Assembly: GCA_027031765.1 (NCBI GenBank)
Contig: JALVPN010000031.1
Span: 38,576-49,042 of the forward strand
From: Promethearchaeota archaeon
Lineage (GTDB): Archaea > Asgardarchaeota > Thorarchaeia > Thorarchaeales > Thorarchaeaceae
Direction: 5' to 3'
Length of the DNA: 10,467 nucleotides
Below, one piece after another: positions 6,730-7,440 of the stretch (positions are counted from its first letter, which is position 1; each line of letters begins with the position of its first letter). The position numbers and the translations under genes are program-made. Below the pieces are notes generated by a model. It ran no database searches. It had not been told where the DNA came from and worked only from the letters and a program-made list of their open reading frames with translations.

Positions 6730-7440
6730 GTGTGGTGCCATTATCACAACAGGGTTCTCAAGGATGTGTTTCACAGGGTCGGCGACCACGAAGGTCTCGT
6801 CGCCCACCATCACCTTCAGGAGCTTGCGGAGTTCAAAACGCCGGAGGTAGCCCACGGCCTGCTCACGCGGCACGTTGAGCTCTGCCATCAGAGAACGCAG
6901 TCCGTTGGGGGCACCACTGTACTGTGCAAACTTTGAGAAGACGGAGCTCCACTGCATCATGACGAGGTAGAGCAGTGTACGGAGCACACTCTCGGCATTC
7001 TTCCCGGTCTTCGCAGAACAGGGTATCACGGGCAGGCCAGCGAGGAACCGCATGCTCCGCCTGAGCTCGTCGACTGGGCGGGCTTCGGGCAGGTCCTGCT
7101 TGTTGGCGGCAACGACGCATGGGACTCCGGGGAGGAAGAATGCAATCTCTCGGAAGAACAGTTTTGCACGTGCGTCGGACTCCTTGTCGACCGAGTCGAC
7201 CACGAATATGATGCCGTCAGCACCCTCGCTGAGGATCTTGCGCATGGTCCTGAACCGTAGGAGGCCTGGTGTGCCGAACATGAACACTACCATGCCGTCA
7301 ACATCTGTCAGCCCGTGGTCCATAGCGATGGTCGTACCACCACGTTCTATGTTGATGCAGGCCCCATTGGTCAGAGTGTGGATGAGGAGGCTCTTACCGG
7401 ACTCGTAAGGCCCTGTCACGACAATCTTCAGCATGAACAC
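6727..7440 (-). CDS. MglA/CvnD-like small GTPase with a C-terminal extension resembling a winged helix-turn-helix, 237 aa (start GTG 7440 or ATG 7434)
   Basis: G1 GPYESGKS, G2 region TTIAMDHG, G3 FGTPG(L)xRF, GADGIIFVVDS, G4 NKQD and G5 CSAK. The TTxAMDxG and GTPG motifs mark the MglA/conservon GTPase group. About 75 extra C-terminal residues follow. Confidence 0.92.
   Translation of the reverse strand: MFMLKIVVTGPYESGKSLLIHTLTNGACINIERGGTTIAMDHGLTDVDGMVVFMFGTPGLLRFRTMRKILSEGADGIIFVVDSVDKESDARAKLFFREIAFFLPGVPCVVAANKQDLPEARPVDELRRSMRFLAGLPVIPCSAKTGKNAESVLRTLLYLVMMQWSSVFSKFAQYSGAPNGLRSLMAELNVPREQAVGYLRRFELRKLLKVMVGDETFVVADPVKHILENPVVIMAPH

Follow-up and report, generated by a model that had tools for sequence, protein, structure and literature searches.

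A conserved leucine at the catalytic-glutamine position of a single-copy small GTPase orthologous group widespread in Asgard archaea

The locus and its GTPase

The window, meaning the whole stretch of 10,467 nucleotides analysed here, carries a small GTPase gene on its minus strand (6727..7434, with an ATG start at 7434), the 235 aa product of which has an MglA2-5 type G domain followed by a predicted C-terminal winged-helix domain. A SelD-like gene (7727-8761, minus strand) lies upstream of the GTPase, and downstream of it come a TPR protein (5422..6291, minus strand; Pfam TPR_12/TPR_2/TPR_1), a surface protein of 1278 residues (1497-5333, minus strand) and, about 6 kb from the GTPase and on the same strand, a Roadblock/LC7 protein (316..708, minus strand; Pfam Robl_LC7, 74 bits). 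An RtcB gene is divergent to this series. A search of the window against Rfam returned nothing.

The open reading frame of the GTPase spans 6727-7440 on the minus strand and offers a GTG at 7440 in addition to the ATG at 7434; orthologues start at the ATG (MLKIV...), and from there a database protein of 235 aa matches at 100%, the reading frame being intact. Pfam assigns only the generic Ras/Arf/MMR_HSR1 domains, and TIGR00231 is matched besides. The P-loop (G1) reads GPYESGKS (G8-S15; 7390..7413, minus strand), in which G8, G13 and K14 do not vary across 71 aligned family members and S15 is kept in at least 90% of them; its fourth position, Glu in this protein, varies among the Leu-type sequences as a whole (E, A, K, G, R, L or N). 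G2 in switch I is T34-T35-I-A-M-D39 (7318..7335, minus strand), with T35 and D39 invariant and T34 kept in at least 90% of the 71. Within the switch II helix (7216..7242, minus strand) Arg65 (CGC, 7242-7240), Gly71 and Asp73 (7218-7216) are present in 71 of 71 aligned members. The guanine specificity motif G4 is NKQD (7093..7104, minus strand; K112 and D114 invariant, N111 and Q113 at least 90%) and G5 is SAK (7009..7017, minus strand; S140 at least 90%). All the nucleotide- and Mg-binding motifs are thus intact, and so the protein, judged from its sequence, should bind GTP.

The G3 motif at the start of switch II is FGTPGLLRF (7252..7278, minus strand). An earlier note on this DNA had read a leucine there in place of the catalytic glutamine, and the minus-strand reading bears this out: 7278-7258 is TTC GGC ACA CCA GGC CTC CTA, giving F G T P G L L and then R F, and the CTC at 7263-7261 encodes Leu58 when counted from the ATG (L60 from the GTG). 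FGTPG makes up residues 53-57; in the 71-sequence family alignment G54, P56 and G57 never vary, and T55 is kept in at least 90%. HMMER alignments against all PDB sequences put L58 opposite Gln82 of Thermus MglA (FGTPGLLRF on YTVPGQVFY), opposite Gln67 of Rab1B (WDTAGQERF) and opposite Gln72 of the Asgard Arf HodArfR1 (8oul, DIGGQQVF; 8ouk is the engineered Q72L), in agreement with the equivalence to the MglA and Arf residues that had been claimed. A catalytic Gln displaced to some other place in switch II, which would have undone that claim, does not appear: across residues 54-75 of the family no Gln is conserved, position 59 being E, L or K and position 62 being S, E or K. Because G57 is invariant and no Gln is conserved in this stretch, the placement of L58 is secure. 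Switch I of the window GTPase reads E-R-G-G-T-T-I-A-M-D, and so the further observation that no Arg immediately precedes the G2 threonines also stands, although as a second oddity it falls away, Thr-Thr being the norm in MglA groups 2-5 (PMC4316618).

A full-length AF2 model made on the 71-sequence family alignment has a pLDDT of 93 and a pTM of 0.90 and consists of two domains. The modelled G domain matches Rab and Arf structures, and it superposes on MglB-bound MglA in the GTP/transition state (3t12, 3t1q) with an rmsd of 2.1 Å over 175 columns, the TM for 3t12 being 0.82 on the target's length. The C-terminal domain of some 73-75 residues (163-235; 6730..6948, minus strand) is predicted by AF2 and Foldseek to be a winged helix, with three helices, a beta hairpin and then two short helices; modelled alone the tail has a pLDDT of 75. 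In Foldseek its best matches are winged-helix domains without exception (CggR, MarR/MepR, ArsR/SmtB), at TMq 0.65-0.71 and with weak E values of at least 0.02, and the Pfam winged-helix matches on it are all sub-threshold. DUF742 (PF05331), the winged-helix family of CvnC, the partner of the conservon GTPase CvnD, gave no match on four C-terminal domains at E values up to 10, the tail fold being that of a generic winged helix, and in a PF05331 search of the whole genome weak matches fell at other loci and none at the Leu-type GTPase gene. A wide VIA-align search with the full model gave generic G-domain matches only, the same two-domain layout being absent from the solved proteins listed, and the ESM Atlas gave only the GTPase's own cluster and generic GTPase clusters. 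The modelled winged helix has a net charge near neutral (−1 to +7 over the whole domain and −1 to +4 over recognition helix and wing), which lends DNA binding no clear support, and the conserved residues of the tail are mostly hydrophobic, together with Arg203, which is kept in at least 90% of the 71-sequence alignment. For these reasons of charge and conservation a protein-docking or intramolecular role seems at least as likely for the tail as DNA binding.

Leu58 among orthologues and glutamine-bearing relatives

A word-indexed search returned 148 proteins, 118 of them with a recognisable G3, and FGTPGL occurs in 117 of these 118 close homologues, the exception having Met. The close ones bear Thor-, Odin-, Loki/Promethearchaeota- and Hod-archaeal names. 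At 47 orthologous loci in genomes of other species the codon at L58 is CTC in 15, CTA in 11, TTA in 7, CTG in 6, CTT in 5 and TTG in 2, with a single ATG (Met), and the occurrence of all six Leu codons implies that the amino acid is held by selection. The expectation that a sequencing error was unlikely is thereby upheld, as Leu is found at 46 of the 47 loci, and the question of whether Leu is conserved in the clade receives a clear yes. What did not survive is the notion of a substitution peculiar to one protein; Leu is instead the ancestral state, kept by selection, of an orthologous group found across the Asgard archaea.

Members of the Leu-type family that are further off bear Frey-, Wukong-, Borr- and Promethearchaeota names, and in the data searched the family is confined to Asgard archaea, with one member carrying a bacterial MAG label. 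In the genome of the window the gene is single copy, the runner-up GTPase match having 36% identity. An orthologue at E <= 1e-25 is present in 206 of 301 sampled genomes of the phylum, or about two thirds, and in 72 of 76 genomes of the window's own family, and there are several families without one among the 301 (for example 0 of 28, 0 of 11 and 0 of 11). Between Thorarchaeial genera the GTPase is 77-81% identical, as against 74-78% for the neighbouring RtcB. Single copy number, presence in about two thirds of the sampled Asgard genomes and a conservation like that of RtcB together suggest that the Leu-type GTPase probably serves a core function. Leu58 is therefore a conserved and selected residue of a distinct, single-copy and widespread Asgard orthologous group.

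An exhaustive search of 1.8 billion representatives yielded 2045 relatives, and among the best 150 of these FGTPGQxRF is the norm, Q being present in about 100; in non-redundant terms 100 of 144 relatives have Q in the L58 column, and GTPGQxRF is indeed usual in the wider family, as had been proposed. The Leu-type proteins differ from the Q-type proteins in what follows helix alpha-5, with a median of 75 residues beyond it against a median of 6, and the predicted winged helix occurs throughout the Leu-type clade while Q-type relatives are without it. Q-type relatives are single-domain or have an N-terminal KaiC-like ATPase domain of about 220 residues. Many of the closest Q-type relatives (P0143, P0144 and P0154) are fusions of some 380-410 residues, in which a KaiC/RecA-like ATPase at the N-terminus is joined to a GTPGQ-type GTPase.

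A FastTree phylogeny of the 144 non-redundant G domains gathers the tail-bearing sequences into one clade (support 0.93) with a single exception, a Q-type protein that is unrelated and has a tail of another kind. Within the tail clade the L58 position is L, rarely F, K, H, E or M, and never Q. The clade is nested among Q-type sequences, and its nearest branches are a few tail-less sequences with Q, H or R. Comparing the columns of 27 non-redundant Leu-type with 101 Q-type G domains shows Arg65 in 27 of 27 Leu-type sequences where the Q-type have Leu, Ile or Trp, Gly71 and Asp73 as specific to the Leu clade (position 73 is mostly Leu or Val in the Q-type), and a two-residue insertion at 101-102 in the Leu-type. 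On these sequence comparisons the clade is shown to derive from GTPGQ-type ancestors by loss of the Gln, gain of a C-terminal winged helix and fixation of Arg65, Gly71 and Asp73.

By its sequence, its place in the tree and its G2 and G3 (the Gln excepted) the window GTPase belongs to the branch of MglA groups 2-5. These are defined by a GTPGQ motif and by a Thr where G2 of MglA proper has its intrinsic Arg, and CvnD, the GTPase of the Streptomyces conservons, is one of them (Wuichet & Sogaard-Andersen 2014, PMC4316618). With these groups the window GTPase shares a G-T-P-G G3, the lack of a Walker-B Asp, a Thr-Thr G2 (T34-T35) and an intact NKxD; its nearest relatives are FGTPGQxRF proteins, and its place in the tree is among GTPGQ-type sequences. 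It departs from them in that their defining Gln is replaced by Leu58, Q never occurring in the tail-bearing clade, and also in the fused C-terminal winged helix and the fixed Arg65, Gly71 and Asp73. No Roadblock gene is directly adjacent to it. With MglA proper (group 1, as in Myxococcus and Thermus, with MglB as its GAP) it has in common the Ras-like fold, a replaced Walker-B Asp and the T-x3-D spacing of switch I, and a Roadblock gene is found in the wider Thorarchaeial cluster; the differences are GGTT and GTPGL here as opposed to the Arg53 and TVPGQ of MglA, and the extra domain.

Neighbouring genes and paralogues

Synteny was compared by tblastn and all-against-all blastp over 17-kb neighbourhoods from 18 genomes. 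Three other genomes of the same family preserve the series SelD, GTPase, TPR, C25-like surface protein and Roadblock together with the divergent RtcB, and the GTPase, TPR and surface protein are also kept together in a second Thorarchaeial family. The TPR neighbour is syntenic in four Thorarchaeial genomes and nowhere else among the 18, and the Roadblock neighbour only in the Thorarchaeial family f1. In family f12 a Roadblock gene lies at a similar distance with unrelated genes in between, and no adjacent Roadblock gene is seen in the other lineages. As the window's genome has 14 Roadblock hits, a neighbour within 7 kb would be expected by chance in about 7% of cases. Unrelated housekeeping genes, such as those for DeoC aldolase, PcrB, aldehyde ferredoxin oxidoreductase, a GT2 glycosyltransferase, a THUMP protein and Rpp14, surround the GTPase in twelve other lineages.

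A weakly TPR-like gene stands upstream of the GTPase only in Odin-type genomes and in family f21, outside Thorarchaeia; an identity of the Thorarchaeial TPR protein with it was considered and rejected, the similarity being at the level of the repeats only (E 0.001). A phylum-wide operon partner was likewise rejected, as synteny is lineage-specific only and Pfam finds unrelated housekeeping genes in ten neighbours from outside Thorarchaeia. Since the TPR protein, the surface protein and the Roadblock protein are conserved beside the gene only in Thorarchaeia and the Leu is phylum-wide, they cannot account for the Leu in general, and the suggestion of the earlier note that Roadblock and TPR proteins might supply the catalytic residue in trans does not hold as a general one. 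They may still be lineage-specific partners of the Leu-type GTPase.

Elsewhere in the same genome (G000) there are Q-bearing paralogues of MglA type, of which two neighbour Roadblock genes. Two paralogues are MglA1-like, with Arg-Thr in G2 ('NRT') and TVAGQ, and lie on contig C144 at about 53.8-55.9 kb (L003) and at C31:30554-31045 (L002); one of this MglA1-like pair is surrounded by three Roadblock genes and so forms, in a Thorarchaeon, a canonical cluster of the MglA/MglB style. One GTPase gene with 'GVPGQ' is near another Roadblock gene. Given that canonical Q-bearing GTPase/Roadblock pairs exist elsewhere in the genome, the Leu type is a specialised paralogue.

Some features of the locus stand apart from the question of the leucine. 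The surface protein, which matches Peptidase_C25 (gingipain-like), has an N-terminus resembling a signal or anchor and, besides a C-terminal transmembrane helix, a tail that is highly basic; it is 45-47% identical within the Thorarchaeial cassette. The SelD-like gene reaches further upstream than its annotated GTG, across a TGA in frame at 8719-8717, and the upstream reading ...TTHG-U-SCKV... fits the Sec/Cys-x-x-Lys loop of selenophosphate synthetase, by which fit the gene is probably a selenoprotein gene shortened by standard ORF calling. Between the GTPase stop and the TPR gene is a spacer of about 435 nt (6292-6726), which measures 0-100 nt in related Thorarchaeial genomes; neither a convincing ORF nor an Rfam hit was found in it, and it occurs once in its own genome and was not found in 40 genomes of the same family.

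Possible ways of working without a cis glutamine

In MglA both Gln82 and Arg53 are catalytic and supplied in cis, and the Q82A and Q82L variants lose intrinsic as well as MglB-stimulated hydrolysis (PMC3199381). The window GTPase has neither residue, Gln82 being replaced by Leu and Arg53 by Thr, and because both MglA cis catalytic residues are missing its intrinsic hydrolysis is probably very slow and its GTP-bound form long-lived. On that view it would be an adaptor or sensor loaded with GTP and not a fast-cycling switch, with the rigidly attached winged-helix domain as a docking or output surface, and any hydrolysis would proceed without a cis glutamine. This is the best explanation of the observations, with about an even chance of being right.

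A precedent for natural Leu in a working protein is provided by kappaB-Ras1/2 (NKIRAS), conserved and functional small GTPases with Leu65 at the Gln61 position. kappaB-Ras is a permanently GTP-loaded structural subunit by virtue of fast exchange and has its switch II pinned in one conformation; it hydrolyses slowly without a catalytic side chain, and L65Q is without effect (PMC12314375). By analogy this counts for a GTP-loaded role of the window protein, as there a natural Leu goes with a permanently GTP-loaded scaffold role, although only the Leu is shared, the window GTPase having a winged helix and belonging to another branch than kappaB-Ras, which is of the eukaryotic Ras family. Other comparisons pull against a long-lived GTP state. 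A hydrophobic residue is compatible with brisk hydrolysis in the HAS-GTPases Era, FeoB, MnmE and YqeH, and kappaB-Ras and Rap have intrinsic hydrolysis without Gln. Arg65, Asp73 and Arg203 could be a replacement catalytic or GAP-docking device, and the strong conservation of switch II may mean that a conformational GTP/GDP cycle is still important.

A serious though less probable account is that of a normally cycling switch, which would hydrolyse GTP without a cis Gln by means of a residue donated in trans or through the family-specific Arg65, Asp73 or, from the winged helix, Arg203. The trans version would resemble the Asn thumb of RapGAP, with the TPR or the Roadblock protein as a conceivable partner in Thorarchaeia. 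That such a route is workable is proved by the HAS-GTPases and by Rap (PMC2848588, PMC2265111). The former have a hydrophobic residue at Gln-cat and make use of alternative residues or K+ (PMC2848588; bioRxiv 10.1101/2020.08.16.253419); Rap has Thr at the Gln position, and the Asn of RapGAP acts in trans (PMC2265111). The Group 1 Rup GTPases also are without the Gln, and catalysis in trans has been proposed for them (PMC4316618). Like Rap1/RapGAP and Group 1 Rup the window protein is a Ras-superfamily GTPase without a switch II Gln, and like Era, EngA, FeoB, MnmE and YqeH its family has throughout a hydrophobic residue (Leu, rarely Met or Phe) at the Gln position, and so on sequence it is a HAS-GTPase in the descriptive sense while unrelated to the classical members. 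Invariance of Arg65, Gly71 and Asp73 only in the Leu clade, the order GTPase, TPR, surface protein and Roadblock kept in Thorarchaeia and the weakly TPR-like upstream gene of Odin-type genomes and family f21 are further in favour of cycling.

The parallels are incomplete, however. Classical HAS-GTPases are ribosome- or K+-activated TRAFAC proteins with a P-loop Asn, whereas the window protein has GPYESGKS and belongs to the Ras-like MglA branch; the Asn of the K+-activated members, considered as a candidate, is not conserved in Leu-type sequences (Glu here, elsewhere Ala, Lys, Gly, Arg or Leu). Rap1 has Thr and not Leu, and neither a RapGAP-like nor any other conserved partner was found beside the Leu-type genes. 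No neighbour is conserved phylum-wide as the Leu is, the Thorarchaeial and Odin-type TPR-like proteins are alike only in their repeats, and MglB itself gives MglA no catalytic residues (PMC3199381).

More speculative, and on balance unlikely, is a GTPase that across the Asgard archaea has been turned into a GTP-gated winged-helix module, which without catalytic residues of its own would report or lock the GTP state and couple it through the winged helix to nucleic acid or to a core machine, Arg65, Asp73 and Arg203 linking the domains.

A degenerate pseudo-GTPase that binds no nucleotide, and in which only the fold or the winged helix matters, could be suspected from the loss of both MglA cis catalytic residues and from Gly54 in place of the Walker-B Asp, but it is quite improbable, since 71 sequences show little or no variation in GxxxxGKS, Thr35/Asp39, NKQD and SAK, and Gly or Thr for the Walker-B Asp is normal in the MglA family, which binds and hydrolyses GTP (PMC4316618). 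Switch regions can align poorly, yet a misalignment that hides the catalytic Gln elsewhere in switch II is very improbable indeed and was rejected, as the Leu directly follows invariant G57 in three independent and agreeing alignments (MglA, Rab1 and Arf) and residues 54-75 hold no conserved Gln. Nothing beyond the bare sequence speaks for a mutation confined to the strain, for an error of sequencing or assembly or for gene decay; the chance of these is negligible, and they are ruled out by the codon data from the 47 loci, to which the near-universal Leu of the close homologues, the intact frame and the identical database protein may be added.

Natural loss of the catalytic Gln is well known in GTPases, and for that reason the surprise is moderate. 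What this analysis adds is the phylum-wide conservation of the Leu, its tie to the gain of a domain and the clade-specific residues of switch II. Published classifications of Asgard GTPases recognise MglA1, MglA2-5, ArfL, ArfR, RasL and Rag groups, and the Asgard GTPase papers searched (PMC10933270; bioRxiv 10.1101/2024.02.28.582541), in which MglA2-5 is listed as a group, make no mention of a Leu-type, winged-helix-fused subfamily. Targeted literature searches found no description of the family, and an account outside the literature searched is possible.

Research on Asgard small GTPases treats them as forerunners of the Ras superfamily of eukaryotes, and the winged helix could be a G-protein output unlike the usual Roadblock/longin platforms. 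Were the gated module described above to be true, it would be a kind of housekeeping G-protein sensor new to archaea and eukaryotes. The Leu-type family offers a natural and easily tested case of a Ras-like switch rebuilt without its own catalytic residues.
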